From Candidatus Saccharimonadia bacterium (GTDB lineage Bacteria; Patescibacteriota; Saccharimonadia; Saccharimonadales; JALRHH01): a stretch of 64,000 bases of DNA. A program made the translations under genes and the position numbers. Under the pieces are notes generated by a model, which did no database searches, was not told where the DNA came from, and worked only from the letters and a program-made list of their open reading frames with translations. Shown piece after piece: positions 6,212 through 31,069 of the stretch; position 1 is the stretch's first letter, and each line of letters starts with the position of its first letter. The stretch is from positions 300,020-364,019 of the forward strand of contig JALRHH010000001.1 of the NCBI GenBank assembly GCA_023253175.1. Reading direction: 5' to 3'.

Positions 6212-6525
6212 TATTCTTCCTTCCAGGCTCTCATAACTAATTCACCCATGGCAAAAAAATCACTCCAAGCTTTGGTTAGTTCTTCTTGTGATAAGGTACA
6301 GATATAGGGCAAGTCCTTAGATTCAACTCCAGGCATTCCCTCGGGAATAATGGGTTGGAGTCGTGGCCTATCGGTGGGATCACTAGGATCTCCTTTTATC
6401 TCGACACCCATATCCGTTGTGATAGGGTGAAACTTTCCTCTATTGTATCCCCGAACACCAGAAATACCGTTCTCAACAATAAGCTCGTCTCTAAATGACT
6501 GTTTTGGTGCTTGTTCGATACCCAT
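6211..6525 (-). CDS. small hypothetical protein (104 aa) inserted between atpD and atpC
   Basis: Its start directly abuts the atpD stop (TAGATG). Its stop overlaps the atpC start (TAATG). No family recognised. Confidence 0.6.
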   Translation of the reverse strand: MGIEQAPKQSFRDELIVENGISGVRGYNRGKFHPITTDMGVEIKGDPSDPTDRPRLQPIIPEGMPGVESKDLPYICTLSQEELTKAWSDFFAMGELVMRAWKEE

Positions 6526-8167
<1,642 letters not shown>

Positions 8168-8171
<4 letters not shown>

Positions 8172-8398
8172 TTCATAGCCTCCACACCAATACCCCAGAT
8201 ACGTGCATCATGGATCCGCGATACCAACTCCCGTTCTGTCTGTTCGCAGACAGGTGCAAGGGCAAGTTCGCCAACTTTATCAACCAGCTCGTACGCCGAC
8301 ACTGCGCTCTCGGCAATTTCGCCCAGATTATCAATCACAAATGTGAATGGACACTCTGGTGGATTTTCGGCGGCGAGTTCAAATAAACGTTGGACCAT
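8168..8398 (-). CDS. small acidic hypothetical protein (76 aa) inserted between atpG and atpD
   Basis: Start overlaps the atpG stop (TAATG). There is a 4-nt overlap with the next small ORF. Confidence 0.55.
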
Positions 8399-9264
8399 TA
8401 CTTCATCGCCTCCGCGCCGCCAGAAATTTCTGAAAGTTCCTGGGTAATACCGGCTTGGCGCACCTTGTTCATCTCAAGTGTCAGATCATCGATTAGATCA
8501 CCAGCGTTATCGGTTGCATTTTTCATAGCAATCATGCGCATGCTTTGTTCTGATGCACCAGAGTCAAGATATGCCTGGAGTAGCTGCACTTCGATAAGTC
8601 GCTGCGTTGTTGCCTCAAGCACCTCTTCAGCTGATGGCTCGAAGCTTGCCTGAGCAACCGCTTCACTAACTTCTGCTTCTACGAAACCAGCAGGAAGGAG
8701 CTGCTTAGTTGAAGCAATCTGCGTAATCGTGTTCTTGTACTCAGTGTAAATAACATCGACAGCGTCGACTGATTTGTCAGTAAATCGTTCGATCAGTGTT
8801 GCGACGATAGGGCGAAGGTCGTTTTCGGTAGGTCGTTCTGGAAAACCTTCGTATACACCAATAACTTCAGCGTCCTTGATACGTGCCACGAACTGCGCAG
8901 CCTTACGGCCAATACAAATGGTCTTAGTACTGATACCAGCAGCTTTGTCGGCTTTTAGTGCTTCCGCATAGCGCTTAAGTACGTTCGCGTTATATGCACC
9001 AGCCAAACCCTTGTCACTCGTAATCAGCACGATGAGGCGACTGTCTACTCTGCGCTCTACAAATAGGTGGTGATTAAAGGTATCAGGCAGGGAACGTAGG
9101 TGTGTCAGGAGTTCGCGAGCTGCGTCACTAAAGAGCTGGATTTGACTTGCAACTTCCTGTGCACGGCGCATTTTACTAGCGGCAACAAGCTGCATCGCCT
9201 TAGTAATCTGGCGAGTGCCCTTGACTGATTTAACTCGTGATTTTAGTTGCCGCGTACTAGCCAT
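8398..9264 (-). CDS. atpG: F1 ATP synthase gamma subunit
   Basis: MASTRQLKSRVKSVKGTRQITKAMQLVAASKMRRAQ at the N-terminus and ITQELSEISGGAEA at the C-terminus. Confidence 0.95.
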   Translation of the reverse strand: MASTRQLKSRVKSVKGTRQITKAMQLVAASKMRRAQEVASQIQLFSDAARELLTHLRSLPDTFNHHLFVERRVDSRLIVLITSDKGLAGAYNANVLKRYAEALKADKAAGISTKTICIGRKAAQFVARIKDAEVIGVYEGFPERPTENDLRPIVATLIERFTDKSVDAVDVIYTEYKNTITQIASTKQLLPAGFVEAEVSEAVAQASFEPSAEEVLEATTQRLIEVQLLQAYLDSGASEQSMRMIAMKNATDNAGDLIDDLTLEMNKVRQAGITQELSEISGGAEAMK

Positions 9265-9487
9265 TATTCTGACCTCTTGATGCTTTGTGAGCCTCTCTTA
9301 ATTCTTGCTTAGCTTTCTCTGCAGCCTCTCCACCTTCGTAGAAGATCGCAGTAAACTGTTCTGGTGTAAGCAAGATGCCTTCCTCTTCAATTTGTGGATT
9401 AGCTTCAAACTGACCAGTATCCTCCAGACCAAACAAGGGTTGGTCATATTCGGGCAGTGGTGATGCGGGCTCGCCGTGCCTATGCAT
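9257..9487 (-). CDS. small acidic hypothetical protein (76 aa) inserted between atpA and atpG
   Basis: Starts 5 nt after the atpA stop. Overlaps the atpG start by 8 nt (AATAATGGCTAG). Confidence 0.55.
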   Translation of the reverse strand: MHRHGEPASPLPEYDQPLFGLEDTGQFEANPQIEEEGILLTPEQFTAIFYEGGEAAEKAKQELREAHKASRGQNNG

Positions 9488-11020: not shown

Positions 11021-11407
11021 TTAGGCTTTCAATGCATTCAGCTGCTTACGAACAGTTGTGTCTAGTTCTGCCCGAGGCGTGCGGATGACAACACCTCCAA
11101 GCAGGCTGGGGTCAACGCTTGCGCTCACCTCAACCTGTTTTGCATCCTCGGATGACAACACAAACTGTTCAATTTTTTTGATAATACCTGCCGACAATTC
11201 ACGTGCGCTGATAACCTCCGCCAAAACGATACCATGCTCGCGGGCAAGGGCCGATTCAATATCACGAACAAGTAGTTCCGCCTGGTTCTGAATTTTGTGC
11301 TCAATCAGGTAGCTCGCCGCTTGGGTGAGTACTTTTTTAGCATCAGATCCGCTAGCGAGCTGGTTTGCGATATGAACTGCAATCTTACGCCGTGAAATAG
11401 TCTGCAT
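11021..11407 (-). CDS. atpH: F1 ATP synthase delta (OSCP) subunit, short form (128 aa)
   Basis: Sits between atpF and atpA. C-terminal [29 protein letters not shown] matches the OSCP C-terminal signature. The N-terminal region is shorter than usual. Confidence 0.7.
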
Positions 11408-11410
11408 ACC

Positions 11411-11956
11411 CTACTTAGCCTCCTTGAGCGCCTGTTCGATGAGTTTTTCATCAGCTGCACCGTTGAGCTTCTGGCCAATGATCTTCTCAGTCGCTTGTGC
11501 AACGAGCGCCTTGGTTTCTTTCTGAAGCTGCGTGCGAGCCTTCAGGATGTCACCGTCAAGCTGCGTACGAGCTTCCGCAACAATCGCTTCTGCCTTTTTA
11601 CGAGACTTAGTTTCAGCTTCTTCAAGCATTGCAGCCGCTTCTTTATGAGCAGTTGCTACGATGTCAGCAGATTCTTTGCGTGCCTCAGCGAGAAGCTTTG
11701 AAACTTTTTCTTCAGCCTTGCCGAGATCCTCAGCTGCTTGCTTGGCTGCTTCGAGACTCCCGATAACAGCACTGCGTCGCTGCTCAAGCGTATCTACCAA
11801 TTTGTGGTACACAAACTTCCTAAGGAAGAGCAGCACCGCAACAAAAGTAATGAGCTGGAAGATAAACGCCTTCAGGTCAATACCAAGCGCCGCAATACCA
11901 CCCGTTGATTCTCCGTGGGCTGCCTCGCTTGCAAATTGTGTTAATGATGTAATCAC
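11411..11956 (-). CDS. atpF: Fo ATP synthase b subunit
   Basis: One N-terminal TM helix followed by a long charged coiled coil (AEAR, KEA, EEAE repeats). Correct operon position. Confidence 0.85.
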   Translation of the reverse strand: MITSLTQFASEAAHGESTGGIAALGIDLKAFIFQLITFVAVLLFLRKFVYHKLVDTLEQRRSAVIGSLEAAKQAAEDLGKAEEKVSKLLAEARKESADIVATAHKEAAAMLEEAETKSRKKAEAIVAEARTQLDGDILKARTQLQKETKALVAQATEKIIGQKLNGAADEKLIEQALKEAK

Positions 11957-11975
11957 TGTTTCTTAATCCTTAAAA

Positions 11976-12191
11976 CTATGAAGTGGTGAATACGATAACA
12001 AGTACGAACGCCAAAACTGCATCAACAAGACCAGCCATGATGAAAGCAGTTGATAGAACCTTACCCTGAGCCTCTGGGTTACGACCAACTGAACGAACAG
12101 CTGATGCACCGATAAGACCAACACCGATTGCAGGACCGATAGCACCGAATGCGATTGTCAGACCTTTGATTAGATTTGCGTCAATTTCCAT
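11976..12191 (-). CDS. atpE: Fo ATP synthase c subunit
   Basis: 71-aa hairpin proteolipid with GAIGPAIGVG in helix 1, an RNPE loop, and a second hydrophobic helix. Confidence 0.9.
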   Translation of the reverse strand: MEIDANLIKGLTIAFGAIGPAIGVGLIGASAVRSVGRNPEAQGKVLSTAFIMAGLVDAVLAFVLVIVFTTS

Positions 12192-12226
12192 TTGTAATAA
12201 CTCCTATTATTTCTTACTTATACCAA

Positions 12227-13054
12227 TTATCCGGTCACCTTGACGGGGTCAGTAGTGACTCCTTCATCATGCTCGTCATGGTCATCGCTATGCGTTGCAT
12301 TAGCCATGTACACCATGGTGAGCATCATGAACAGATAAGCTTGGATTCCACTAAAGAATATTTCCATCAAGTAGACAGGGAAGGTTGCGATAGGGCCAAA
12401 ATTGCCGCCGAGATCAGCGATAACGTGCAGCAGCACCTCTCCGGCATAAATCACACCGAAAAGACGCATAGACAGGGTAATGATACGGATGAACTCACCC
12501 ATAACTTCAATCAGACCAATAAACGCGTTCATCGGGTTCCACCATGGTTCGACAACGGAGAAGTAGTGCTTTAGGTGGCGGCGAAGACCGAGTTCACGGA
12601 GTGCCCAGAACTGAACGGTTCCAATTGTCAGGATTGCCATACCAAGCGTCGCATTAAGGTCAGTAGTAAACGGACGGAGTAGTGGTGATACATGGCCGTC
12701 ATTCGTAATACTGATACTTCCAACGCCAGGAATGAGGCCAGATAGGTTGCTGAATAGAATAAAGGTAAAGAGCGTGAGGAGTAGCGGGAGATGCTTGAGC
12801 GCTTTCTTGCGTGAGCCAAAGTTATCTTCACCAAGCTGAATAACCATCTCAACCAAGCTCTCGATCGCAAAGGCGAGCTTGTTGTGCGGCTTGACCGTGC
12901 TACGACGCGCTGCGAAGGTGAAAAGTGTTAGCACCACAGCAGCCATGATAAGGCCATAAAACATGGCATTCGTGAAACCAAAACCACCCAAGTTAATGAT
13001 CGGTTCGGCAGCAAGCGGAACACCACCTTCGGCAGCAAAATTAAACAACCGCAT
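12227..13054 (-). CDS. atpB: Fo ATP synthase a subunit
   Basis: Polytopic membrane protein with the conserved LSMRLFGVIYAGE region. First gene of the operon. Confidence 0.9.
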   Translation of the reverse strand: MRLFNFAAEGGVPLAAEPIINLGGFGFTNAMFYGLIMAAVVLTLFTFAARRSTVKPHNKLAFAIESLVEMVIQLGEDNFGSRKKALKHLPLLLTLFTFILFSNLSGLIPGVGSISITNDGHVSPLLRPFTTDLNATLGMAILTIGTVQFWALRELGLRRHLKHYFSVVEPWWNPMNAFIGLIEVMGEFIRIITLSMRLFGVIYAGEVLLHVIADLGGNFGPIATFPVYLMEIFFSGIQAYLFMMLTMVYMANATHSDDHDEHDEGVTTDPVKVTG

Positions 13055-13210
13055 TAAAACCTCCGGTCACGGTGGCAGTAACGCTACTGAATTGTAGTTG
13101 CATGACTCTACGCATTTCTTGCCGGCAGTATATCAGTTGAATTCAGGGTAGTGCAAGGGAGAACTTAACCCGAGGGCTTTTTGAAAGTAAAACGATAAGG
13201 GCTTGGTTCG

Positions 13211-13903
13211 TTAAATTACCGTGGACCAGTAGTACCAGAAGTGCTCTAGTATTGCGAGGATAATGAGCAGGTACCAGGTGACCAAAATTTCTACGTGGTA
13301 TTTGCCGAAGAATCGACCAACGCTCTGCAATCCAGAAGGCAATACAATATGCTTTTCACGAATGTTATACAGCAGGGTATATATGAAGATCGGAATTGTA
13401 ACCGACCAGACCACCATACAGTAAGGGCAGAGCGCGCCAATATTATAAATACTCTGGTACTGCAGCCACGTCACGAAACAGACACCAAAAATCGTACCGG
13501 CTTGCAAACCAAGCCAGAACCAACGTTTAAAGGTCGCGCCGGCCAAAATTGCCATACCGACAGTTATTACGATCGCGAAGCCCGCAATACCAATGATCGG
13601 ATTAGGGAAACCAAATGCCGATGCCTGAGGGGTGTTAATAACCGAACCACATGCAATGATTGGATTCAGATCACATGACAATGAAGCACTTGGGTTTTTG
13701 AGTAGATGTACTTTTTCGATCGTGAGGATGATTGCACTCAGCAGACCGATCGTACCGCCGACGACGAGTAACCACGGAAAGATACGGGTAAATGACCACT
13801 TCTTTTTAGTTCCGACTACAGTAGGTTCTACGGCTTTTGCAGCTGCCGTCCGCTTCTTTGGAGTTGTCTTTTTAGTTGCCATATACGTTATTGTAGCAAA
13901 CAT
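13211..13903 (-). CDS. vitamin K epoxide reductase (VKOR) family membrane protein
   Basis: Loop cysteines (SCDLNPIIACGSV), a CPYC active-site motif (ALCPYCMVVW), and 4-5 TM helices. An alternative start at 13882 (MATKKTT) is possible. Confidence 0.8.
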   Translation of the reverse strand: MFATITYMATKKTTPKKRTAAAKAVEPTVVGTKKKWSFTRIFPWLLVVGGTIGLLSAIILTIEKVHLLKNPSASLSCDLNPIIACGSVINTPQASAFGFPNPIIGIAGFAIVITVGMAILAGATFKRWFWLGLQAGTIFGVCFVTWLQYQSIYNIGALCPYCMVVWSVTIPIFIYTLLYNIREKHIVLPSGLQSVGRFFGKYHVEILVTWYLLIILAILEHFWYYWSTVI

Positions 13904-19819: not shown

Positions 19820-20296
19820 ATGGCTAAGAAAAAGCAGCAGACCACTAAATCGATCCAGAACCGCCGCGCGCGTCATGATTATGAGCTCGAGGATAGTTTA
19901 GTGGTGGGCTTGGAGTTAACAGGCAGGGAAGTTAAATCCCTTCGCCTTGGCCACGGCCAGCTCCGCGGCGCGTATGTGACTGTCAAGGATGACCAGCTCT
20001 GGCTCCTCAACAGCACTATTAATGGCACAAATGGCATTCCGATCCCAGAGGCAGAACAGACCAGGACCCGCCGATTACTTGCCAAAAGAAAACAGATCGA
20101 CCAGCTCATCGCCGCAAAGCAACAGGACAGAAGCATTGTACCGCTGGAAATGCTAACCAATGGCCGCTTCATCAAGCTTCGTATCTCTGTTGGTAAAGGC
20201 AAAAAGCAATACGACAAACGTCAAGCTTTGAAGAAGCGCGACGATCAGAGATCCCTTCAGGGAGAACTGAAGTCTCGCCAGAGACTATCGTATTAG
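19820..20296 (+). CDS. smpB: SsrA-binding protein SmpB
   Basis: NRRARHDYELEDSLVVGLELTGREVKSLR and a basic C-terminal tail. Confidence 0.93.
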   Translation: MAKKKQQTTKSIQNRRARHDYELEDSLVVGLELTGREVKSLRLGHGQLRGAYVTVKDDQLWLLNSTINGTNGIPIPEAEQTRTRRLLAKRKQIDQLIAAKQQDRSIVPLEMLTNGRFIKLRISVGKGKKQYDKRQALKKRDDQRSLQGELKSRQRLSY

Positions 20297-20451
20297 TACG
20301 ATAATCAAGAGGTCTTGCAGGATATTTATTCCGAGAAAGCTCGCAGATTATATGCGCGAATGCGCTATACAAAAGACAAACCCTTAAAGAGCGCGACGAT
20401 GAACGTACCACAAATGCAGCCATTAAATCTCTGAGTCATCTGTAAATATCA

Positions 20452-21336
20452 CTAATCGAAGTGAGGGATAACGCGCTCGGCAAAAGCATTTATAAGAGCG
20501 CTGAACCCATTTTTATAACAATCCATTTCATCCAGACCATCACCTATGGCGTCATTCAAAATTCGACTTGTTATACGGACAGATACAGAATCAACAAACT
20601 TTTTAATATCATCAGGCCGTTCAATCAGAATACGTTTTCCAAAGCGTGCATTAGCTGCAAAGTGCTTTACGGATGCGACTTCGATCAAATCATTAATATC
20701 CTGGATCGACGATTGATTAATCCGAGCTTCAAGCGTTGGATTTGATTTACCATTCGGAACATCAAGGATATATGCATGTGTTACTAAATCTGCCCCCATT
20801 TTCCGTAACAGCGCATCTATAGAAACCTCATGCGCGCCAGTCACACGGATATCATCGATTGCTATGACATGTTTGTCTTCAATATCAATGCCCTTAGGTA
20901 GGGTTAAACCGTTCTGCTCCATGACTTTGTCACGTTCTTCAGCTGTCATCGCTGCATAATCACCGTCAGTTAAGTTTGCTCTGTTAATTTTGAAAGGTAC
21001 GATTCGAGTGCGCGAACCATATACATGAGTCACGGCTTGCGCCATACCGACAAAAGGCTCTATAAGTGAGGCAGAGGCAGGGCGGGCAATCTTATATGCC
21101 GAAGAGGTTACATAAAGGTCACGCGGACCTTCTATCTCAATACAAAGCGGAACAAGATGTCTTGCAATCGCCGCACCGTATAACCGCGAGACTGCACCAT
21201 CACCATACTTAAACCGGCTATAATCCTCTAAACTGAGAGTAACATCATCAACATTTGGTTCGATTATTACTGCATCGTTTTCTGTAATTACATTACCCAG
21301 GGCAAATCGTTCGAGATTGTCAACCATATTATCCAT
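20452..21336 (-). CDS. phosphoribosyltransferase-domain protein (294 aa)
   Basis: PRPP-binding loop-like KHVIAIDDIRVTGAHE. Paralogous to the upstream gene. Confidence 0.6.
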   Translation of the reverse strand: MDNMVDNLERFALGNVITENDAVIIEPNVDDVTLSLEDYSRFKYGDGAVSRLYGAAIARHLVPLCIEIEGPRDLYVTSSAYKIARPASASLIEPFVGMAQAVTHVYGSRTRIVPFKINRANLTDGDYAAMTAEERDKVMEQNGLTLPKGIDIEDKHVIAIDDIRVTGAHEVSIDALLRKMGADLVTHAYILDVPNGKSNPTLEARINQSSIQDINDLIEVASVKHFAANARFGKRILIERPDDIKKFVDSVSVRITSRILNDAIGDGLDEMDCYKNGFSALINAFAERVIPHFD

Positions 21337-22183
21337 TCCTATCCTGGTTAATCGTACGTGCTATGGTAAATCCGTCTTTATACTGCGCAACAAAATCAAC
21401 ACCGGTATCTACCGAACCACGCACTACAGCCTCCAGTATTCGCTCTGGAATTTGCTCTAAAAACTGCACAAGTCGTGTAGGATTTGTAGCCAATATGAGT
21501 TTAAGAGTACGGATATTAAGGTCAAAGTTATCTGCGCGCATTAAAGGTAACAGATCACTCACACTACGAATAACTGAAGCGTTCAGGTCGTTTTCTACAC
21601 TTGGGTTATTAAATGCTTGGTCTTTATCAAATAAAGCTATATAACCTAGTGCAACAAGTTTTGGATCTTCTGGAGCAAGTACTTCAAGCATCTTACGCTC
21701 AGCTCCACCTGTAATACGTATATCATCCAAAACTATTGTATGCGATCCCCGCAGCTTACGACCTTCAAGTGAAAATCCAATGTCATCCAACTCTTTTTTA
21801 CGCTCTGCCTCCGTAGCCGCAGCGTAGTTAGTAGCCGCAACCCTATCCTTGTATACATGGACCATGCGGCCAGGTTCATTACCTTGACTTAAACGCTCAA
21901 TGTTAAGTTGATCCAGGCAGTAGCGGCTCAGATAAAAACATGCTGGTGGCACTGCCTTATATGCCACTAAGAATTCTGGGGGAGTAGACTCAGAAATAAG
22001 CTCAGGCAGTTCCTTCTGTAAAACATCTGCAATCTCACTCGCAAATTCTGCAGTTGCTGCTGCATCACCATACTTCATTCGGCTATACGCATTACGATCA
22101 AAAACTTGGCCATTTTGTTCAGTAATATTTGATTGGTCATCATATTGCAGATAGTACGCTGCCACTGTCTCGAGCTCTGACAT
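21329..22183 (-). CDS. phosphoribosyltransferase-domain protein (284 aa)
   Basis: SHTIVLDDIRITGGAE. Shares YSRMKYGD / YSRFKYGD with its paralog. 8-nt overlap with the downstream gene. Confidence 0.6.
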   Translation of the reverse strand: MSELETVAAYYLQYDDQSNITEQNGQVFDRNAYSRMKYGDAAATAEFASEIADVLQKELPELISESTPPEFLVAYKAVPPACFYLSRYCLDQLNIERLSQGNEPGRMVHVYKDRVAATNYAAATEAERKKELDDIGFSLEGRKLRGSHTIVLDDIRITGGAERKMLEVLAPEDPKLVALGYIALFDKDQAFNNPSVENDLNASVIRSVSDLLPLMRADNFDLNIRTLKLILATNPTRLVQFLEQIPERILEAVVRGSVDTGVDFVAQYKDGFTIARTINQDRNG

Positions 22184-22872
22184 TAGACACTTCCCTCAAT
22201 TATGCTGCGTAAACTGACATCACCTACCATATGAATAGCTTGCATTCCAATTTGCGTTGCACCAAGTACATCGGCACGAGCGTTATCACCAATATGCGTG
22301 ATATGACTAGCTTCTACACCTGACATATCGAGTAATCGCTGAAAAATGCGAGAATCAGGTTTTGCGTAGCCAACCTCATTAGAAAAAATCTTATACTCAA
22401 ACTTCTGGCCGATTCCAATAGCATCAAGAGCAAGACGCATTTGATCACCGTGCATATATCCCGTATTACTTATAATTGCTAATTCTCGGCCACTATCTTT
22501 TATTTGATCGAGTAATTTAGGGGTAGAATCATCAAGTAGTAACGGTAGATTTTTTTGAAATAATTTACCTTGATATTCATACAGTTCTTCCAGCATACTT
22601 TCGCTTGGCTCGGCAGCACCGACAGCTTTAGCGACCAGTCGTACGCGCTCTCCAAACAACACATCTTGCCCACGACTTTCTGCGATTTTATCTGCCATCT
22701 TATCTTGTGCTCTCACCACTTCATCAAAATCACTCTCTAGCATGTGGGGCGCGAGCAAAGAACCCATGTGGGCATTACGAATGTTCTTGAAATTACGGCC
22801 ATTGCTCTTAATGAGCGTCAGCCATAAATCAAAACTAACAAGCTCCGTATCAGGTGTGATACGCTCTAACAT
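22183..22872 (-). CDS. HAD-superfamily hydrolase
   Basis: Motif I variant SFDLWLTL (DxWxT, so the second Asp is absent), ISNTG (motif II), and a K..GDNARADVLGA motif III/IV. AAGGAG RBS. TAATG coupling to the PRTase gene. Confidence 0.65.
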   Translation of the reverse strand: MLERITPDTELVSFDLWLTLIKSNGRNFKNIRNAHMGSLLAPHMLESDFDEVVRAQDKMADKIAESRGQDVLFGERVRLVAKAVGAAEPSESMLEELYEYQGKLFQKNLPLLLDDSTPKLLDQIKDSGRELAIISNTGYMHGDQMRLALDAIGIGQKFEYKIFSNEVGYAKPDSRIFQRLLDMSGVEASHITHIGDNARADVLGATQIGMQAIHMVGDVSLRSIIEGSV

Positions 22873-22970
22873 TTCTGCTCTCCTTTGAGGTAACTGATAT
22901 GCATCCAGTTTCTGGACACATATGTATTAACTCTAAGTTCGATAAAACAGTGTGAGCTAAGCGCGGTTGG

Positions 22971-23008
22971 GGGATGGTCTCCGTTGCCGGAGCATTGGAG
23001 ACCATCCC
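22971..23008 (-). terminator. 12-bp inverted repeat downstream of the TerC-family gene
   Basis: GGGATGGTCTCC..14 nt..GGAGACCATCCC, 12 nt beyond the stop codon. It marks the left edge of the GC-rich block. Confidence 0.4.
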
Positions 23009-23019
23009 ACCGCGTACTA

Positions 23020-24156
23020 CTAGACGCCGACCGACACAGAGGTCGGAGTGCTGCTGTCCGCGTCGCCACGGTCCTGCTTGTTCAACCACCACGAGTGGAA
23101 GAAGGCAGTGCCGATGAAGGCGACACCGATGAGGCCGGTGATGACCTCTGGTACCTCGTGACCGATGCTGAAGAGCATGATCGCCGCCAGTGCGCCGATC
23201 GCCCAGTGAGCACCGTGCTCGAGGTACCGGTAGTCGTCGAGCGTCCCCTGGCGGACCAAGTAGACGGTCAGCGACCGGATGTACATCGCCCCGATGCCGA
23301 GACCCGCCGCGATGATGAAGATGTTGCTGCTGATCGCGAACGCGCCGATCACACCGTCGAACGAGAAGGACGCGTCCAGAACCTCGAGGTAGAGGAACAG
23401 GAAGAACGCCTGCTTGCCGACAGCCTGCACGACCGTGTTCGGACCACCGAGCGACTTCTCCACCGCCTCCACGTCTCCATGGATGCCGGCTCGGACCTCG
23501 TCGAGCTCGTCGGCCCCTTCGCTCTCGAACAGCTCACCCAGACCGTTGACGGCCAGGTAGGTGACGAGACCCAGGACTCCCGAGAACAACACGGTACCGG
23601 GCTCTTCCGCCAAGGTCTTGGACACCACGCAGAGCGCGATGGCCGCCACCACGACAGACAGCTGGTCCAGCTTGCCGATGCGCGCGAGCGGACGCTCGAG
23701 CCACGACAGCCAGGTGATCTCCCGGTCCTCGAACAGCCAGTCCAAGACCAGCATGAGGAGGAACATCCCACCGAACGCAGCGATGCTCGCGTGCGCATGG
23801 TGCAGCAGGTACGCGTAGGTGCCCGACTCGTGGATGCTGCCGCCGGCGAGTGCCTTGTCGATCGTCTCCACCGGTCCGAGACCAGCAGAGAGCATGACCA
23901 CGAGCAGCGGGAAGACCAGCCGCATGCCGAAGACGGCGATGATGATGCCGACCGACAGGAAGATCTTCTGCCACCAGGGGGACATGCGCTCCAGCACCTT
24001 GGCGTTCACGACGGCGTTGTCAAACGACAACGACACCTCGAGCACGCTCAGGATGAAGACGATGGCCAAGGCAGAAGGACCTCCGAGGTACAGCGCCAGC
24101 AGCAAGCCGATGGCGGTGACCCCGAGGGACCACTTGAAGTGACGAAGCAGGTTCAT
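23020..24156 (-). CDS. TerC-family / DUF475-type integral membrane protein
   Basis: LEVSLSFDNAVVNAKVL and EVLDASFSFDGVIGAFA paired motifs with multiple TM helices. AAGGAG RBS. GC-rich. Confidence 0.8.
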   Translation of the reverse strand: MNLLRHFKWSLGVTAIGLLLALYLGGPSALAIVFILSVLEVSLSFDNAVVNAKVLERMSPWWQKIFLSVGIIIAVFGMRLVFPLLVVMLSAGLGPVETIDKALAGGSIHESGTYAYLLHHAHASIAAFGGMFLLMLVLDWLFEDREITWLSWLERPLARIGKLDQLSVVVAAIALCVVSKTLAEEPGTVLFSGVLGLVTYLAVNGLGELFESEGADELDEVRAGIHGDVEAVEKSLGGPNTVVQAVGKQAFFLFLYLEVLDASFSFDGVIGAFAISSNIFIIAAGLGIGAMYIRSLTVYLVRQGTLDDYRYLEHGAHWAIGALAAIMLFSIGHEVPEVITGLIGVAFIGTAFFHSWWLNKQDRGDADSSTPTSVSVGV

Positions 24157-24174
24157 CTTGACTCCTTTCGGGGG

Positions 24175-24345
24175 TCAGTTGGAACGAGAAGTGGACTTAC
24201 GCCGCCCGACATAGAGCCAGAACGGTGCACCGAGGATGAAGCCGATGAACATGTTGCTGAACATCAGCACCTTGAACTGCGAGATCATCGAGTACACGAT
24301 GACCACAGCCAGCAGCAGGAATGCTGCCTTCGTACCCTTGGACAT
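24175..24345 (-). CDS. small membrane protein (56 aa), absent from the ORF track
   Basis: My translation is MSKGTKAAFLLLAVVIVYSMISQFKVLMFSNMFIGFILGAPFWLYVGRRKSTSRSN, with GGAAGAGG upstream. It ends 19 nt before the TerC-family start. Confidence 0.45.
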   Translation of the reverse strand: MSKGTKAAFLLLAVVIVYSMISQFKVLMFSNMFIGFILGAPFWLYVGRRKSTSRSN

Positions 24346-24363
24346 GAAACTACCTCTTCCTGG

Positions 24364-24546
24364 CTACCAGGTCGACGAACGACTGATCTGCTTGTAGGCG
24401 ACCAGGCCGACGGCGACGATGATGGTGACGATGACGACGCCAACGATGTGGCCGAAGATGAACTTGACCATCAGGAACAGGAGCACCAGCGCCGCGACGG
24501 CACCAATGATCTTCCCGGCGTTCTTCTGCAAGAACGTCACGTTCAT
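24364..24546 (-). CDS. small membrane protein (60 aa)
   Basis: Start trimmed to MNVTFLQKNAGKIIGAVAALVLLFLMV, which follows an AAGGAAA RBS. Two hydrophobic helices. Confidence 0.45.
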   Translation of the reverse strand: MNVTFLQKNAGKIIGAVAALVLLFLMVKFIFGHIVGVVIVTIIVAVGLVAYKQISRSSTW

Positions 24547-24824
24547 ACGGATTTCCTTTACGCTTGAAGGGGCTTGTAGCACTTATCTCGGAGAGAGCAA
24601 GCAATCTAAGCACGATATCCCTGATCAGATTGCTTGCCCCCTCAACAAGAGGCTTAACTCACACTATTAAGGTGCATGTATTTCGCCAAATATATGGTCA
24701 GTCACATACAGACTGTATATTATATAATTTTACGTATATTTTTTCAATACTATTTACTACGCTCTATCAGGGTAATGTTGCGGGTTGCAAGCAGAGCGCC
24801 GATACAAAGCAGTACATAGTAATA

Positions 24825-24872
24825 GCGGGTGGCCTCTTGATCACGACAAAGTCGGAAAAAGAGGCCACCCGC
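24825..24872 (-). terminator. 14-bp inverted repeat downstream of terD
   Basis: GCGGGTGGCCTCTT..20 nt..AAGAGGCCACCCGC. Confidence 0.4.
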
Positions 24873-24954
24873 AGGGTAAAGCTGAAGCCGGCTGGCCAAA
24901 GCTAGTCTGTCACTAGGGACAGATGTGATTCAACCAACCGGCGACTTGGACAGC

Positions 24955-25536
24955 TCAGTTGAGACTGACACCGTGGTCGCGGCAGAGACCGGCGAGTCCG
25001 TCGTTGTAGCCCTGGCCGACGGCCCGGAACTTCCAGTCTCCGCCGTTGCGGTAGAGCTCGCCGAACACGACGGCCGTCTCGAGCGAGAAGTCCTCACCGA
25101 GGTCGAAGCGCGCCAGCTCGGTGCTGGTGCTGTCGTCGACGATCCGGATGAAGGCGTTCTTCACTTGGCCGAAGTTCTGACCGCGCTCGGTGGCCTCGTA
25201 GATCGTCACCGCGACGGTGATCCTGTCGGCCATCGGCGCGACCTCGTTCAGCTTGATGCTGATCTGCTCGTCGTCACCGTCGCCGGCACCGGTGAGGTTG
25301 TCACCGTTGTGCATGACGGAGCCGTCGGGCGCGGTGAGGTTACCGTAGAACACGAAGTGCTTGTCCGTCAGCACCTTGCCGGAGTCGTCGACGATGAACG
25401 CCGAGGCGTCGAGGTCGAACTCCGCGCCGGCGGTGGTGCGTGCGTCCCAGCCGAGGGCGACGGTCACGCTGGTCAGCGCACCACCGGCCTCCTTGCTGAG
25501 GTTGACGTTGCCGCCCTTCTGGAGCGAAACAGCCAT
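24955..25536 (-). CDS. terD: TerD-family stress/tellurite resistance protein
   Basis: MAVSLQKGGNVNL, LGWD, DLDASAF, GDNLTGAGDGDDEQI and the GELYR..WKFRAVGQGY tail are the canonical TerD pattern. Confidence 0.93.
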   Translation of the reverse strand: MAVSLQKGGNVNLSKEAGGALTSVTVALGWDARTTAGAEFDLDASAFIVDDSGKVLTDKHFVFYGNLTAPDGSVMHNGDNLTGAGDGDDEQISIKLNEVAPMADRITVAVTIYEATERGQNFGQVKNAFIRIVDDSTSTELARFDLGEDFSLETAVVFGELYRNGGDWKFRAVGQGYNDGLAGLCRDHGVSLN

Positions 25537-25608
25537 GATGACTTCCTTCCTTGGGCATTGTATACCCGGTTGCAGCGCCGCGGAGTTGCGGTGCTGATGA
25601 GAAGAGAA

Positions 25609-26757
25609 CTACAGGTCCTGCTGACCAAGCATCTCGAGGATGCCGTTCGCACGTCCGGTCCGACGTACTTCGATCACATGCCTGCCCACATCGTCAGACG
25701 ACGCGTATAGCACGATGAGATCGCCCTGGTTGAACGTCCGCGTCCCGAGTTGCAGGGGAAAGCGAACGAGGTACTGCGCCGGCCACGGAACAGTGCCGTA
25801 GGCACGCCCATACCGGTAGCGGATGCGCCGGGTGAGCAGGGCAGAGCGGAGCTGCTCGCTGAGCTGGTAAGCAGCCGCAGGATCTGCGACTGACTCCCAG
25901 AAAGCAGTGAGCTGCTCTCGGCTCGCCTTGTCACCGGCACGCTTCTGCTGCTGAACAGGGTCCGTCATACACCACGGGTCAAACCCAAGCTCGAGGTCAT
26001 CGAGAGTAGGCTTGTAGCGCAGTGCCGTAACGTACACCTGGCCGAGCAGGTAAGGCGCCCACAGCTGCTGTCCGATCGTGAAGATCTCGCTCACAACAGG
26101 AAGCGCCTCCCGGACAAGCTGCTTACGGCTTTCCACCGACAAGCTTGTCCGCCAGCTCGACTGCAGATAGACGAACACGTCAGCCTTGGGCTGCAGTGCC
26201 GACTTGGCGGTCTGGTATACGTCCTGCATGCGCTTGGCGATGCCGAGCTTCTCGATCTGCTGGAGGTCAGAGACCACCTGCAAATAGATTGCTTCAAACA
26301 CCGCCCACACACCGACATATCCCAAACCATGGATCTTCAGGTCAGGCAACGAAACCAACGATGCGTTGAGCGGCTTCGATCCATGATCAAGTTCACTCTG
26401 CAGCGTAATGGCTCGCATGGTCATGCTACCGGCCAGGTCGCACAAGGAGTCGCACTCCTGATACACCTGAGTAGGCAGCACCTCTTCGGACTCGTACAGC
26501 ACGACAACACCGTCCAGATAGCTCGTCGCCGCCTGCCAAAGCACGGCCGCCAGCCACTGGGCGTGCGTGATCGCCATCGTCGGCACCGGTGCAGTCCAGG
26601 GCGTGGTGCCCGAAGCCTGCATCTGCGCCACCACAGCATCAAACACCTGTGTCGTCTTGTACTGGTTGTCTACGGTCCTACCAAGCAGTTCAGCAACCTG
26701 AGGGTCGCCGCCTGCCACCGGACCTTGACGTCCGTACATGGGGGCAAACCCAAACAT
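25609..26757 (-). CDS. hypothetical protein (382 aa), GC-rich
   Basis: AAGGAG RBS. No motif recognised. Embedded in the Ter island. Confidence 0.55.
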   Translation of the reverse strand: MFGFAPMYGRQGPVAGGDPQVAELLGRTVDNQYKTTQVFDAVVAQMQASGTTPWTAPVPTMAITHAQWLAAVLWQAATSYLDGVVVLYESEEVLPTQVYQECDSLCDLAGSMTMRAITLQSELDHGSKPLNASLVSLPDLKIHGLGYVGVWAVFEAIYLQVVSDLQQIEKLGIAKRMQDVYQTAKSALQPKADVFVYLQSSWRTSLSVESRKQLVREALPVVSEIFTIGQQLWAPYLLGQVYVTALRYKPTLDDLELGFDPWCMTDPVQQQKRAGDKASREQLTAFWESVADPAAAYQLSEQLRSALLTRRIRYRYGRAYGTVPWPAQYLVRFPLQLGTRTFNQGDLIVLYASSDDVGRHVIEVRRTGRANGILEMLGQQDL

Positions 26758-26970
26758 CGCTCACTCCTTGGATTGGTTGGTTGAATTCTTAACGAGCTCC
26801 TCAAGACTTTGATGTTCTCTCTGTCGAAAAGCCCTATTATTGTATCATAAAAAGTATCCTATACAACTGTTTTGTTAATATAGCCAAATATTGACTTTGT
26901 ATGTTTTTATGAATATAATCGCCCCAGTCAACAAGCGTTGATGCACCTCGACAGATTGGAAGTGAATACC

Positions 26971-27738
26971 ATGGGCGTTTCGCTCGAGAAGGTTCAGCAG
27001 CAAGCTCCGCATCTGGTCAGCCTCGTCAAGGAGACGAGCGTGATCCTGGAGAAGAAGGGCCTCAACCCGGAGAGCTACAAGGCGGCCGTCGTCGGCACGC
27101 TCGACTTCAGCGGCTCCGCGTCCGGCCTCTACCAGAACGGCACCATGCAGCGCGCGGCCGACCTCGGCTTCGCCGCCGGTCTCGTCTTCGACGACGACGG
27201 CTCCGTGCCGTTCTCGCTCTTCGACAGCGGCGTGACCGACATCGGCGAGATCACCCTCGGCAACTGCCAGGGCTTCGTCGACAAGGCCATCCGCGGCCGC
27301 CGCATGGGCAGCACCGACTACGTGTCCGCGCTGAAGTGGATCGTGGACACCGCCGGCTTCGGCAAGGTCAACCTCGGCTCCGGCGGTGGTGGCTTCTTCC
27401 GGAAGGGATCGTCCCTCGAGGTCAAGGCCAAGGCCCAGTACCCGACGTACGCGCTCTTCGTCACCGACGGCGAGCCGAACGGGGGTACCGAGGGCCAGAT
27501 CCGCCAGTACCTGACGCAGATGTCCCAGCTGCCGATCTTCGTGCAGTTCGTCGGCGTCGGTCCGCACCAGTTCCAGTTCCTCCGCCAGCTCGACGAGCTC
27601 GACGGTCGACTGATCGACAACGCAGGCTTCTTCGACGCCAAGGAGGTCGGCAACGACCAGAGCAAGATGCTCGAGGCCATGCTCTCCGAGTTCCCGCAGT
27701 ACTACGCCGACGCGCGTCGTCAGGGCCTCGTGGGCTGA
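26971..27738 (+). CDS. vWA-domain protein of the TerF-C-terminal / TerY-like type
   Basis: MIDAS-like DFSGSAS, FVTDGEPNG and PIFVQFVGVG. Start trimmed to ATG 26971 (MGVSLEKVQQQAP). Confidence 0.7.
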   Translation: MGVSLEKVQQQAPHLVSLVKETSVILEKKGLNPESYKAAVVGTLDFSGSASGLYQNGTMQRAADLGFAAGLVFDDDGSVPFSLFDSGVTDIGEITLGNCQGFVDKAIRGRRMGSTDYVSALKWIVDTAGFGKVNLGSGGGGFFRKGSSLEVKAKAQYPTYALFVTDGEPNGGTEGQIRQYLTQMSQLPIFVQFVGVGPHQFQFLRQLDELDGRLIDNAGFFDAKEVGNDQSKMLEAMLSEFPQYYADARRQGLVG

Positions 27739-27864
27739 TCCTCCGGCATCCCGCCAACCACACAACTTCATACCATCTGTCGAAGGGCTGCATACTGACT
27801 TTTACGCTTCACGCGTTCAAAAAAGATCAGTATGCAGCCCAACGACACACCCTTTATGCATATC

Positions 27865-27899
27865 AAAAACACCCGCGTAAGGTTTGCGGGTGTTTTTTT
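27865..27899. terminator. bidirectional rho-independent terminator
   Basis: AAAAACACCCGC-GTAAGGTTT-GCGGGTGTTTTT between the convergent vWA and TerD-like genes. Confidence 0.6.
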
Positions 27900-28031
27900 A
27901 TTATCACAATATATCGTATCCAAAAATTGCGTAAACGGCCCACCTGGTTCCGAGAAGAAAATCTCCTCAAGGTTCCAGGTGGGCCGCTTATGCGACTAGC
28001 TATGAAATTATAGGTGCAAGCAGCAGGAGAA

Positions 28032-28667
28032 CTACTTGGTCTTGCCCTCGGGGCCGTGGTCCATGAGGACCTGGTCACCCCTGTAGCCGACGCGCTTCTC
28101 CGAGCCCGGCTTGGAGTACAGCTCCAGGTTGACCACGGACAGGTGACCGTCCTGCTCGAAGAGCACCTCGCCGAAGCAGAGGGTGTACTGGGTGCCGTTG
28201 GCGCTGGCGTCGGCGGCGCTCAGGCTGACCACCTGCGGTCCGTTCTCGATGTTGACGTAGACGCCGTACTCGCGGAACGATCCTTGGCCGTTCTCGAGGG
28301 CCGAGTACGACGACAGGGCGACCGACGCGATGTCGGGGTGCCACGTGATGTCGATCTTCTCGAGGTCTCCCGGGTTCGTGACGTCGCCGTGGTGGCGGAT
28401 CGCCCCCTCGGAGGTCTTGAGCACCTCGTCCCGGTTGGCAGCACCGACGTAGACCTGGCGACCGTCACGGTAGCGCACGAGCGCCTTGAGGTCGTAATCC
28501 TTGCCCTCGGCCGTCCAGCCGTTGCTGACCACGATGGTCGTGTCACCGGCGGACGGCTTGGTCAGGGTGACCCTGGAACCCTTGGTCAGGTTGACCCCAC
28601 CGGTGGGCGGAGCAGCCTGCTGCACGGGTGCCTGCGGAGCCGAGCTCTTCTTGTCGAACAGTCCCAT
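28032..28667 (-). CDS. divergent TerD-fold protein (211 aa)
   Basis: GVNLTKGSRVTLTK, NGWTAEGKDYDLKALV and GDVTNPGD..EKIDI resemble the TerD/CABP1 beta-sandwich. AGGAAGGA RBS. Confidence 0.55.
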   Translation of the reverse strand: MGLFDKKSSAPQAPVQQAAPPTGGVNLTKGSRVTLTKPSAGDTTIVVSNGWTAEGKDYDLKALVRYRDGRQVYVGAANRDEVLKTSEGAIRHHGDVTNPGDLEKIDITWHPDIASVALSSYSALENGQGSFREYGVYVNIENGPQVVSLSAADASANGTQYTLCFGEVLFEQDGHLSVVNLELYSKPGSEKRVGYRGDQVLMDHGPEGKTK

Positions 28668-28978
28668 GGGGAGTCCTTCCTAAAAATACTAGTCGCTGAT
28701 CCGAACCCATTTGGGGACGGTATAAAGCGATAAATTCTAAATTGTTAATGTGCGTAGTTTCGTCGTTTACGACTCTTCAGTGTGGCTTACATCCACAGAC
28801 TATGCGGGGGTATCATGATTGAAGGCTGCGAATTAACGACAGCGATCGCACATGCACCCCCTCGGGATTAATGGCACCCGTGTGGCCAGTATGTTCACGT
28901 GTCCAAGTGGACACGGAAGAACCTCTACATACATGAGGGTGATGGTGCTCGCTCCAAGGAACGAGTCATCTGGTTCAA

Positions 28979-30262
28979 TCAGCCAGCGGAAGGACCCGCG
29001 GGCAGCGCCAGGATCTGACGGGACGAGCCGACGATGCTGTTGACGACCTGCTCGTTGTAGTGAGCGCTGGAGCCATCCAGGATGAGCTTGGACTGACCCA
29101 TGGTGGCGTCCAGCTCAGCACGCTTGCGCGAACCTTCCTCGACCTCGGTGAGGATGTTCTCGGCCATCTGAACGAGCGAGTCCGTCACCGCAGTGATGGT
29201 CTCCGGCAGCAGCGTGGGCGTCTGCACCGCACGCATGATCTGACCTGCCGCCTGAGCCGAGTTGGCCGCCACCTGCTGCAGCATGTCGTTGGTCGCGCTG
29301 GAGACCGCCTCGTTGGCCTTGGCAGCCTCGAGCGACTCCGCCATCATCCGCCACTGGACGATCGCCAGCTTCATGGTGGGGATGGTGAGCCCGACAGCCT
29401 CGTTGAGCTTCTCGGCCATACCAACGTTCAGGACACGCATCATGCGCACCTGCGGCGACGTAGCCCAGGCGACCCACAGCCGGCCCTTGTACTCACCGAT
29501 CTTCACGTCCATCTGGAGGATCAGGTCGGCGTAGCGCTGCTTGAGCTCGGCGTTCTTGTTGCCGGTGGTCGGGTCATCCGGAGGGATGGTGGCCACCTGC
29601 TGCCGCGCCTGCTCGGCGATGCACTCCATGACGGCGATCGCAGAGATCAGCTGGAAGATCGCAACCTCGTTCTCGCCGTAGAGCTGATCGAGGTACGCGA
29701 TGTTCCGCATGGCCTGCATCTTGTGCTGGTTCAGGTCCTTGAGGATCTTCTCCAGCTGGGTGTCGACGGACTGCATGTCGACGAGCATCGCCTGGACGTA
29801 GTTGCGGCCCTTGCGGAACCACTTCTTGACGAAGCTGCTCTCCCACTCGTCGTACGACTTCTTGCCCTCGGGGGTGTTGAGGTCGTACCTGCCCTTGAGG
29901 GACTTCGAGGTGAGGGTGAGCTCGCGCATGATGTCCCTGACGAACCCGGTGTCGTTGGCCGGCAGCTCACGCATGAGGCGGTCGATGAGACCGTTGACCC
30001 CTTGGAGCGCCGACTGCCCGTGGTTCATGAGAACCTGGGTGTTGTTCAGCATCTCCGGCAAGAGCTTGGCGGCCTCGGCCTGGACCTTGGCGAGCTCCGA
30101 CGGTGGGATCATGTCCTTACAGACGACACCACTGCGGGACTCGGGGGTCTCGCTGACGGTCGCCAGTCCAGACGCGATGGGCTTCTCCGGCTGCGGGGCA
30201 ACCTCCAGGGGAGGGGCCTCCGTGGGGGCGCCGGGGACTTCGAACTGCAGTGGGGTGGTCAT
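28979..30262 (-). CDS. telA: TelA/KlaA toxic-anion-resistance family protein
   Basis: Long helical protein with LKGRYD, VDTQLEKILKDLNQHK, LDQLYGENE and IPTMKLAIVQWRM, which is the TelA pattern. AAGGAGG RBS. Confidence 0.85.
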   Translation of the reverse strand: MTTPLQFEVPGAPTEAPPLEVAPQPEKPIASGLATVSETPESRSGVVCKDMIPPSELAKVQAEAAKLLPEMLNNTQVLMNHGQSALQGVNGLIDRLMRELPANDTGFVRDIMRELTLTSKSLKGRYDLNTPEGKKSYDEWESSFVKKWFRKGRNYVQAMLVDMQSVDTQLEKILKDLNQHKMQAMRNIAYLDQLYGENEVAIFQLISAIAVMECIAEQARQQVATIPPDDPTTGNKNAELKQRYADLILQMDVKIGEYKGRLWVAWATSPQVRMMRVLNVGMAEKLNEAVGLTIPTMKLAIVQWRMMAESLEAAKANEAVSSATNDMLQQVAANSAQAAGQIMRAVQTPTLLPETITAVTDSLVQMAENILTEVEEGSRKRAELDATMGQSKLILDGSSAHYNEQVVNSIVGSSRQILALPAGPSAG

Positions 30263-30296
30263 CGACCAGCCTCCTTTTCCTTGGTTGGGATGTAGC

Positions 30297-30743
30297 TCAG
30301 CTGAACCGCTGCGCTGACAGAATCTTGGTGTCGACTCCGAAGTTGGTCATGCTCTGGGTGCCACTCGGCGTTGCCTTGCTCAGTACTCGAGCCGCGAAAC
30401 CATCCACGGCGTCAAAGCCCTCCTGCAAGTGCTCGTCACGACTCGGGTAACCAAAGTCGTTCTGAATGATCACGTACTGCTCGAGTACGCGTACCACCGC
30501 CTTGAGATTCTCCTGGAACTGCATGATGTCACTGTCAGAGGGCTTACCGTCTGGGCTGTTACGCACCAAAAACGGCTCGCCGTTCTGAGCGATCAACGTC
30601 AACAGGACCTTGAGCCTCGGGGCGGTGATCTGGATCCGAGTCTGTCCGATGTCGTCGAGCAGAGCACGTACTCTGCCGAGCGAATACTCGGGCTCGGTCT
30701 TCGGGACAGACTGGCTTGACTGATTGTTCTTGAACCAACCCAT
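30297..30743 (-). CDS. hypothetical protein (148 aa), immediately upstream of and co-oriented with telA
   Basis: Start trimmed to MGWFKNNQ, which follows a perfect AAGGAGG. Ends 35 nt before the telA start. Confidence 0.55.
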   Translation of the reverse strand: MGWFKNNQSSQSVPKTEPEYSLGRVRALLDDIGQTRIQITAPRLKVLLTLIAQNGEPFLVRNSPDGKPSDSDIMQFQENLKAVVRVLEQYVIIQNDFGYPSRDEHLQEGFDAVDGFAARVLSKATPSGTQSMTNFGVDTKILSAQRFS

Positions 30744-30994
30744 ATCGCTACCTCCTTTCAATCTGGTGGCAGTGTTGTAACGACGGTTTTGGGACATGAA
30801 AAGAACGAGATTGAAGTAAGAAGAATATATCATTTTTATACTTATAAGTCAATGAAGTTGCCATATGGTCAACTACTTATATTTACATACAACACTTTTC
30901 AGATATAGACTAGTGCCATCATGTCTATTTACAGAGAATAACAAAACAGGTAGAATTACTTTTGTTATCTTTCTCTCAAGAGAGTCACCACTAT

Positions 30995-31069
30995 TCCGAG
31001 GTGGCGCAGCGGTAGCGCAGTTGACTGTTAATCAATTGGTCGCGGGTTCGAATCCCGCCCTCGGAGCCA
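30995..31069 (+). tRNA. tRNA-Asn (anticodon GTT), CCA encoded
   Basis: Manual cloverleaf: acceptor TCCGAGG/CCTCGGA, D arm GCGC-AGCGGTA-GCGC, anticodon arm GTTGA-CTGTTAA-TCAAT, T arm GCGGG-TTCGAAT-CCCGC, discriminator G, then CCA. Confidence 0.95.

Follow-up and report, generated by a model that had tools for sequence, protein, structure and literature searches.

A Saccharibacteria chromosomal Ter cluster joined to a minimal phosphoribosyltransferase operon and set apart by a conserved third-position codon regime

Comparative genomic work by Anantharaman, Iyer and Aravind in 2012 reportedly predicted that Ter genes are linked to a biosynthetic module producing a nucleoside-like metabolite; to our knowledge, this link, predicted since 2012, has never been explained biochemically. 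The Ter-linked nucleoside-like metabolite module is cited here through a later paper that refers to it (PMC8115787). Here, we describe a version of this module in a 64,000-nucleotide stretch (hereafter, the window) of the chromosome of a Candidatus Saccharimonadia bacterium (contig JALRHH010000001.1, positions 300,020 to 364,019, assembly GCA_023253175.1), in which genes for two phosphoribosyltransferases (PRTases), PRT_A and PRT_B, and a haloacid dehalogenase (HAD) family hydrolase adjoin genes for a TerC/DUF475 membrane protein, TerD, a TerF-like protein with a von Willebrand factor A (vWA) domain, a divergent TerD-domain protein and TelA. This is a chromosomal Ter cluster of Saccharibacteria (TM7), long resident at its locus and joined to a minimal Ter-linked metabolite module, and the steep GC step between the two sets of genes is a gene-specific codon regime rather than a scar of horizontal transfer.

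As in the described module, PRTases of family PF15610 and a HAD hydrolase are encoded in one operon linked to TerD, TerC, TelA and vWA genes, and two related loci (L016 and L023; comparison loci carry L numbers throughout) add a PF15617 C-C lyase within the operon, together with a third PRTase in L023. Unlike the described module, the window's version is minimal, consisting of two PRTase_3 paralogues and the HAD, with ATP-grasp, lyase, PRTase_2-TRSP and StiP/PELOTA components not found; it resides in an ultra-small Saccharibacteria genome and is accompanied by two family-less proteins, hyp382 and hyp148, and by a HAD without the Asp+2 residue of motif I. In the searchable literature, no relevant account of Ter genes was found for either Saccharibacteria or Patescibacteria, and the one match to the name “TelA”, which concerned an unrelated Streptococcus toxin, was set aside.

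The PRTase-HAD operon and its linkage to Ter genes

The original prediction, made from the nucleotide sequence, was that a translationally coupled HAD-PRTase-PRTase operon lies directly beside a TerC-family gene and forms a partial Ter-associated metabolite module, with no ATP-grasp or TIM-barrel partner in the window. Open reading frames (ORFs), Pfam families and stop/start overlaps confirm the operon (Table 1): TAATG contains both the stop codon of the HAD gene and the start codon of PRT_A, the start of PRT_B lies 8 nt inside the end of PRT_A, and the quoted phosphoribosyl pyrophosphate (PRPP) loops of both PRTases, as well as the DxWxT motif of the HAD, are all present in the translations. 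The lack of partners was borne out by Pfam scans and tblastn. Neither an ATP-grasp nor a C-C lyase family was detected among the scanned window ORFs of at least 250 aa, a set that left out three ATP-synthase-sized ORFs, and tblastn with the PF15617 lyases of L023 and of the actinobacterial locus L019 produced no match in the window. No defence model of PADLOC was matched.

Both PRTases belong to PF15610 (PRTase_3, “ComF-like”), with scores (Table 1) far above the cutoff of 28.7 bits; this family was reportedly defined from Ter neighbourhoods. Against NCBIfam models of the salvage and related families (APRT, HPRT, PRPP synthase and ComF), they reach 18-20 bits at best where the cutoffs are 113-296, and the PF00156 profile gives 17 bits with a cutoff of 26.3. 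The profile comparison therefore places the two proteins with a Ter-linked family and not with ordinary salvage enzymes. A YSRxKYGD motif specific to the family also occurs. The AlphaFold2 model of PRT_A (predicted local distance difference test score, pLDDT, 90) contains a type I PRTase core, in which the PRPP-binding loop has the expected acidic pair followed by T-G, and an additional C-terminal helical domain of ~80 residues. Foldseek retrieved HPRTs as the nearest structures (E 1e-5, probability 1.0), although these 6-oxopurine PRTases are remote, with 10-16% identity and TM-scores of ~0.3-0.45. In named genomes, the closest homologues of PRT_A come from Candidatus Saccharimonadales/Saccharibacteria metagenome-assembled genomes, apart from one record labelled Betaproteobacteria that is probably mislabelled.

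In canonical HAD phosphatases, the Asp at position +2 of motif I serves as the general acid/base. A comparison of 16 orthologues, Rhizobium and Hymenobacter among the sources, gave S-[FL]-D-[LIV]-W-x-T-L as motif I in every one, such that Trp replaces Asp+2 and the canonical DxDx[TV] signature is absent, with the nucleophile Asp, motif II (SNTG), the motif III Lys and motif IV (GDNxxxD) retained. Given the established enzymology, this replacement speaks against a routine sugar-phosphate phosphatase mechanism, and the enzyme may turn over slowly or have a substrate whose leaving group departs readily. The best NCBIfam match is to the REG-2-like family, under its cutoff.

Conservation of the linkage was assessed in the Saccharibacteria loci with enough flanking sequence (n = 14), with Ter genes counted as linked when located <10 kb from the HAD-PRTase genes. 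Linkage was found in 12 (L007-L013, L016, L018, L022, L023 and L024), in which gene order and orientation are reshuffled, inversions included; the adjacency is also kept on a Hymenobacter plasmid. The arrangement GT2-GH42-SmpB-[HAD-PRT-PRT]-TerC-vWA is common to the window and L009, where the operon is inverted and PRT_A is 49% identical, and the actinobacterial locus L019 carries a fuller module, with the lyase, PRTase_2-TRSP and StiP-PELOTA. The linkage in relatives, the lyase in L016 and L023 and the fuller module in L019 show that the window contains a pared-down form of the known Ter-linked module; together with PF15610 membership, they bear out the partial module of the original prediction and the conserved adjacency that it called for.

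Several further observations concern the same neighbourhoods. In L024, a PRPP synthase gene (8344-9357) is located directly upstream of hyp148-TelA, which, in this single locus, fits a PRPP-consuming pathway. In L011, the region upstream of the HAD operon (5685-9061) encodes a 545-aa fusion of a solute-binding protein with a VWA domain, a protein with weak similarity to XpaC (PF10112) and an unknown protein of 375 aa; the GC content at third codon positions (GC3) of these genes is moderately raised (0.52-0.61), and they may be further Ter-associated genes. In the window itself, an imperfect 32-nt direct repeat (20214-20245 and 20369-20400, 75% identity) represents the 3' end of smpB copied into the smpB-PRT_B spacer, and may be a scar of the inversion of the operon relative to L009.

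A third-position codon regime in the Ter genes

The contrast between a low-GC operon and high-GC Ter genes, also noted in the original prediction, is real, with GC contents of 0.42-0.43 against 0.64-0.66 for the five Ter genes. GC3 is 0.32-0.34 in the HAD and PRTase genes, 0.88-0.93 in the genes for TerC, TerD, the vWA protein, the TerD-like protein and TelA, and ~0.73 in those for hyp382 and hyp148. At the first and second codon positions (GC1 and GC2), the Ter genes are native-like, at ~0.62/0.40 against 0.58/0.36 in their neighbours. Spacers inside the cluster have 44.7% GC, compared with 41% for the window's other spacers and 69% for those of the actinobacterial Ter locus L019. The high GC3 follows ORF boundaries, two small ORFs preceding TerC included. 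Codon choice in the Ter genes is close to categorical: ATC, AAG and TAC are used at 100% and G-ending Lys, Glu and Gln codons at 94-100%; unlike the actinobacterial locus, however, these genes retain GGT, CGT and GCT and avoid GGG and CGG. The two-fold codons of the ATP-synthase genes are shifted in the same direction.

The gene-by-gene ranking of GC3 is reproduced in about ten divergent Saccharibacteria in which synonymous sites are saturated. Each Saccharibacteria relative with Ter genes shows the pattern: these genes stand at 0.88-0.95 in L009 (HAD/PRTases, 0.28-0.35), 0.78-0.88 in L007 (~0.5), 0.72-0.84 in L022 (HAD/PRTase, ~0.5), 0.88-0.91 in L023 (HAD/PRTases/lyase, 0.45-0.51) and 0.60-0.77 in L011-13 (0.30-0.43), and in L024, TelA alone is at 0.76 among genes at ~0.35. 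In all the relatives' loci, the GC3 outliers are almost solely genes of the Ter cluster. TelA orthologues that are 85%, 60% and 58% identical have GC3 of 0.86, 0.88 and 0.76; between the window and L023, 59% of four-fold sites in TelA differ, a level equal to saturation and due chiefly to C/G swaps, yet GC3 is 0.88-0.90 in both. In the syntenic loci L011, L012 and L013, the flanks are saturated (0.55-0.68), yet the gene-specific GC3 levels are retained. An excess confined to GC3, its recurrence at saturated sites and the conserved synteny speak for active maintenance of the codon regime.

The GC junction is no assembly artefact: a chimera was ruled out because the identical arrangement is present in at least five independently assembled samples, in one of them on a 644-kb contig (ENA ERZ27267699 k141_834652). 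Nor does the block look like a genomic island, given that the atypical composition does not extend to all site classes and spacers. The search for island boundaries revealed no flanking direct (att-like) repeats, no integrase turned up in the gene content of the cluster, and the block is present and syntenic in relatives. A tRNA-targeted island was also considered and rejected, because the block lies 5' of tRNA-Asn rather than at its 3' end and att-like repeats were not detected.

With respect to phylogenetic affinity, TelA belongs to a narrow Saccharibacteria-type subfamily, in which none of 30 homologues at E<1e-10 is labelled Actinobacteria. The TerC proteins of the window and L018 differ in this regard: they are 64-74% identical to actinobacterial DUF475 proteins (64-71% for the window protein) and group with them, whereas other Saccharibacteria TerC proteins are 37-49% identical. 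Actinobacteria are the known host phylum of cultivated Saccharibacteria, and the grouping suggests that TerC alone was exchanged with Actinobacteria long ago. The best non-self match of TerC is 73% identical, and the exchange is too old to explain the present-day GC3.

The original prediction offered two histories, that a native metabolite module recruited foreign Ter genes or that the two halves were acquired separately. Neither is supported: the effect is limited to third positions, it recurs in relatives and synteny is conserved, and the split also covers Saccharibacteria-restricted proteins. The GC3-only excess, native-like spacers, recurrence at saturated sites, narrow distribution of TelA, synteny with L009 and lack of att sites and integrase exclude a recent foreign origin of the block.

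Competing explanations of the arrangement

The explanation that we favor, and hold to be reasonably probable, is that a minimal Ter cluster with a PRPP-dependent metabolite module has been kept vertically and that selection holds the Ter genes at G/C-ending codons. Under this scheme, each PRTase, or a heteromer of both, would ribosylate a base-like acceptor using PRPP, the HAD would process the 5'-phosphate product, and the resulting nucleoside-like compound would act alongside membrane-associated Ter proteins when the cell responds to stress, metals or phage. The cause of the codon regime is probably selection for high or stress-proof expression, hints of which come from the retained GGT, CGT and GCT codons, the like shift in ATP-synthase genes, the near-consensus promoters and the hairpin between TerC and the HAD operon: synonymous codons of the Ter genes would be selected for strong or stress-robust translation, and the enzymes would be produced at a low level from ordinary codons.

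Several observations weigh against this explanation. GC3 of the ATP-synthase genes is just 0.44-0.54, which makes ordinary expression-linked bias in this genome look weak, and motif scans of the examined loci, with 8 kb added, yielded no ribosomal, EF-Tu or GroEL genes for codon comparison. TerC nests with Actinobacteria and the overall codon pattern resembles that of Actinobacteria, such that a high-GC donor may have made some contribution. In L020 and L021, cysS and the gene for an AI-2E transporter flank the trio, and no Ter gene is located <10 kb away. In L018, a relative on a 962-kb contig, the enzyme genes, in the altered order PRTase-HAD-PRTase (11356-13840), are themselves GC3-rich, at 0.87-0.93 against 0.55-0.70 in the flanks, the sole case of the enzymes in a Ter-like codon regime. 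Finally, PF15610 has no known substrate or product and no solved structure, and the Trp at Asp+2 puts a simple phosphatase role of the HAD in question.

A bolder proposal, which we consider doubtful, is that the Ter structural genes form a codon-insulated regulon, kept at near-pure G/C-ending codons across Saccharibacteria whose GC3 is ~0.35-0.7 and resembling the usage of their actinobacterial hosts. Such insulation might exist because these genes have to be translated when stress, phage or host attack compromises the tRNA and mRNA economy, or because it would leave them open to exchange with host genes, a possibility raised by TerC. If this were the case, unusually strong codon selection specific to one gene set would operate where ultra-small genomes should show weak selection.

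It is quite unlikely that the HAD-PRTase-PRTase operon functions independently of Ter, for example as a salvage or regulatory PRPP-binding unit, and that its adjacency is incidental. The trio of L020 and L021 is in line with independence, as are Rhizobium plasmids, for which an incomplete gene table shows a HAD-PRTase pair but no Ter gene in its vicinity, the hairpin that suggests a transcript separate from TerC, and the difference in codon regimes. These points are set against a linkage that persists in Saccharibacteria and on a Bacteroidota plasmid through inversions and reshuffling, against PRTases that reach no salvage-family cutoff, and against the Ter neighbourhoods from which PF15610 was reportedly defined.

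Similarly improbable is a hotspot of exchange among Saccharibacteria in which the high GC of the Ter genes is sustained by GC-biased conversion or by recurrent import from lineages richer in GC. Such GC-richer lineages exist (L008 and L018), identities to different relatives form a mosaic from gene to gene, and local recombination is evident in hyp382: the copies in L011 (16108-17259) and L013 (17029-18180) are 90% identical with a four-fold divergence of 0.26, against 60-73% and ~0.5-0.6 for their neighbours, which points to a recent gene-sized recombination within the cluster. Conversion should, however, also have raised spacer GC, GC1 and GC2, all of which are native-like, and the AT-rich spacers accordingly disfavor it; further, the enrichment tracks ORF boundaries down to the two small ORFs, and the GC3 ranking of the genes is reproducible across lineages.

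Very unlikely, and largely refuted, is the recent transfer of a Ter island from a high-GC donor, for example an actinobacterial host, to a site beside the native operon near tRNA-Asn: abrupt GC steps at 23000 and 30850, the tRNA, the affinity of TerC to actinobacterial DUF475 and the broadly actinobacterial-like codon usage would fit it, but spacers (unlike those of a true actinobacterial locus), GC1 and GC2 in the block are native-like, the GC3-rich TelA, hyp382 and hyp148 lack close actinobacterial homologues among their matches, the nearest non-self TerC is only 73% identical, about ten divergent Saccharibacteria whose synonymous sites are saturated show the split as well, the smpB synteny is common to L009, and the block lies 5' of the tRNA with no integrase seen and no flanking repeats.

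Vertical retention with selection on Ter codons, if selection is indeed the cause, would imply strong synonymous-site selection in reduced epibiont genomes and would make the Ter proteins a major, probably abundant, component of Saccharibacteria physiology. A module of three genes in a genome of ~0.65-1 Mb also offers the easiest setting in which to identify the pathway's substrate and product. For island detection, the locus is a warning, because steps of 20 points in GC and 55 points in GC3 stem here from a conserved codon regime rather than from foreign DNA.

Cluster layout and comparison with known systems

All the components of a Ter stress-response set, namely a TerD domain, a TerC-family protein, TelA and a vWA-TerF-like protein, were recognized by Pfam, and the divergent TerD-domain protein, which scores under the gathering threshold, has orthologues in L007 and L022 (Table 1). 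The ORF of the vWA-TerF-like protein opens at 26938 (TTG), and the ATG at 26971 is the likely start.

Table 1. Features of the Ter cluster and the adjoining operon (window coordinates)
Feature	Position	Strand	Description
PRT_B	20452-21336	-	294 aa, PRTase_3 (ComF-like) paralogue, PRPP loop DDIRVTGAHE; PF15610 99.8 bits, E 2e-28
PRT_A	21329-22183	-	284 aa, PRTase_3 paralogue, PRPP loop DDIRITGGAE; PF15610 97.3 bits, E 1e-27
HAD-IA hydrolase	22183-22872	-	229 aa, motif I DLWLT; PF00702/PF13419
Structured TerC-HAD spacer	22873-23019	-	147 nt; RNA fold -64.7 kcal/mol, z-score -7.66
TerC/DUF475 membrane protein	23020-24156	-	378 aa, GC3 0.88; PF04332 405 bits, PF03741 64 bits
Two small predicted membrane ORFs	24175-24345 and 24364-24546	-	56 and 60 aa, GC3 0.79 and 0.92
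Sigma-70-like promoter	24719-24747	-	TTGAAA-17-TATAAT, near-consensus; before the small ORFs and TerC
TerD	24955-25536	-	193 aa, GC3 0.91; PF02342 266 bits
hyp382	25609-26757	-	382 aa, family-less, GC3 0.73
Promoter	26891-26919	+	TTGACT-17-TATAAT, near-consensus; before the vWA gene
vWA-TerF-like protein	26971-27738	+	GC3 0.93; PF10138 135 bits
Hairpin	27865-27897		13-bp stem with A and T runs on either side; predicted bidirectional terminator between convergent vWA and TerD-like genes
Divergent TerD-domain protein	28032-28667	-	211 aa, GC3 0.91; PF02342 E 1e-4, under gathering score
TelA	28979-30262	-	427 aa, GC3 0.90; PF05816 117 bits
hyp148	30297-30743	-	148 aa, family-less, GC3 0.74; upstream of TelA
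Promoter-like site	30824-30852	-	TTGACT-17-TG-TATATT, extended -10; before hyp148-TelA
tRNA-Asn	30995-31069		Beyond hyp148; smpB flanks the cluster at the opposite end

The two family-less proteins are lineage-restricted, conserved members of the Saccharibacteria Ter cluster. For hyp382, no Pfam or NCBIfam match was obtained; its family comprises ~36 representative clusters at E<1e-30, remoter matches cover only the C-terminal ~120 residues, and the gene is syntenic in L011-13, L018, L022 and L023. The AlphaFold2 model (pLDDT 90.8) shows a six-helix bundle followed by a C-terminal beta domain, with no sequence or fold match in the PDB, and the idea of a hidden ATP-grasp enzyme was rejected on these grounds. 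For hyp148, Pfam gave no match, and syntenic homologues were found in L011-13, L023, L024 and L025; its equivalence to the 154-aa protein beside TelA in L019 was rejected because similarity is undetectable. The two small ORFs before TerC encode hydrophobic proteins with two probable transmembrane helices each, follow 18-nt spacings, and were called as genes in the independent assemblies L003 and L004. Equivalents also precede TerC in L018, and these ORFs are likely to be TerC partners that have escaped annotation.

Three of the window's best sigma-70-like sites precede the small ORF-TerC, vWA and hyp148-TelA units, and the first of these is among only four matches at 11 of 12 positions in 64 kb. 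The spacer between TerC and the HAD gene folds far more stably than shuffled sequences (Table 1); it contains a 17-bp hairpin straight after the TerC stop (inverted repeat 22971-23008) and, directly before the ribosome-binding site of the HAD gene, another palindrome, and could act as a terminator, attenuator or operator. A riboswitch upstream of TerC was rejected, as Rfam models identified only tRNA-Asn in the window. The layout would fit strongly expressed Ter units and a separate, weakly expressed enzyme operon.

Antisense ORFs of up to 527 aa are located opposite the Ter genes (22984-24567, +; 26875-27771, -; 28014-28733, +; 29060-30295, +); with GC1 of ~0.87, they are by-products of GC3-rich coding. 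Several public assemblies call such ORFs instead of the real genes, so that TerC, vWA and TerD are mis-annotated there. Outside the cluster, the plus-strand gene at 48001-52821 encodes 1606 aa that include FG-GAP and numerous Big_12/Big_13 Ig-like repeats; its product is probably a large adhesin on the epibiont surface.

The actinobacterial locus L019 combines TerD-TelA-TerC/DUF475-TerD-TerD with the lyase, PRTase_2 and StiP, and has no ATP-grasp among these module parts. The window's TerC and TerD are 66% and 63% identical to their counterparts there, and both loci favor G/C-ending codons; in contrast, the window TelA has no match in L019, the biosynthetic genes differ, and high GC extends in L019 to every codon position and to the spacers, whereas the window block shows it at third positions only. 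On the Hymenobacter monticola plasmid NZ_CP094537, a HAD-PRTase pair is arranged divergently beside three TerD genes, two VWA genes and DUF475, and the HAD has the same D-x-W-x-T motif; unlike the window, the plasmid has a single PRTase and PP2C/kinase genes of the TerY-P type, and lacks TelA, hyp382 and hyp148. The type I core and the PRPP loop are shared with HPRT and HGXPRT, whereas the C-terminal helical domain and the YSRxKYGD motif are points of difference.

Compared with expression-linked codon bias as generally described, the Ter effect is likewise confined to third positions, bounded by ORFs and marked by a preference for NNC over NNT, with ATP-synthase genes shifted in the same way, but it is far larger (GC3 ~0.9 against a median of 0.44) and is seen here in one functional gene set only. 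The link between Ter genes and PRTases is itself already known; what is new is its setting in Saccharibacteria, the minimal form of two PRTases plus a HAD, the association with hyp382 and hyp148, and the conserved third-position codon regime.

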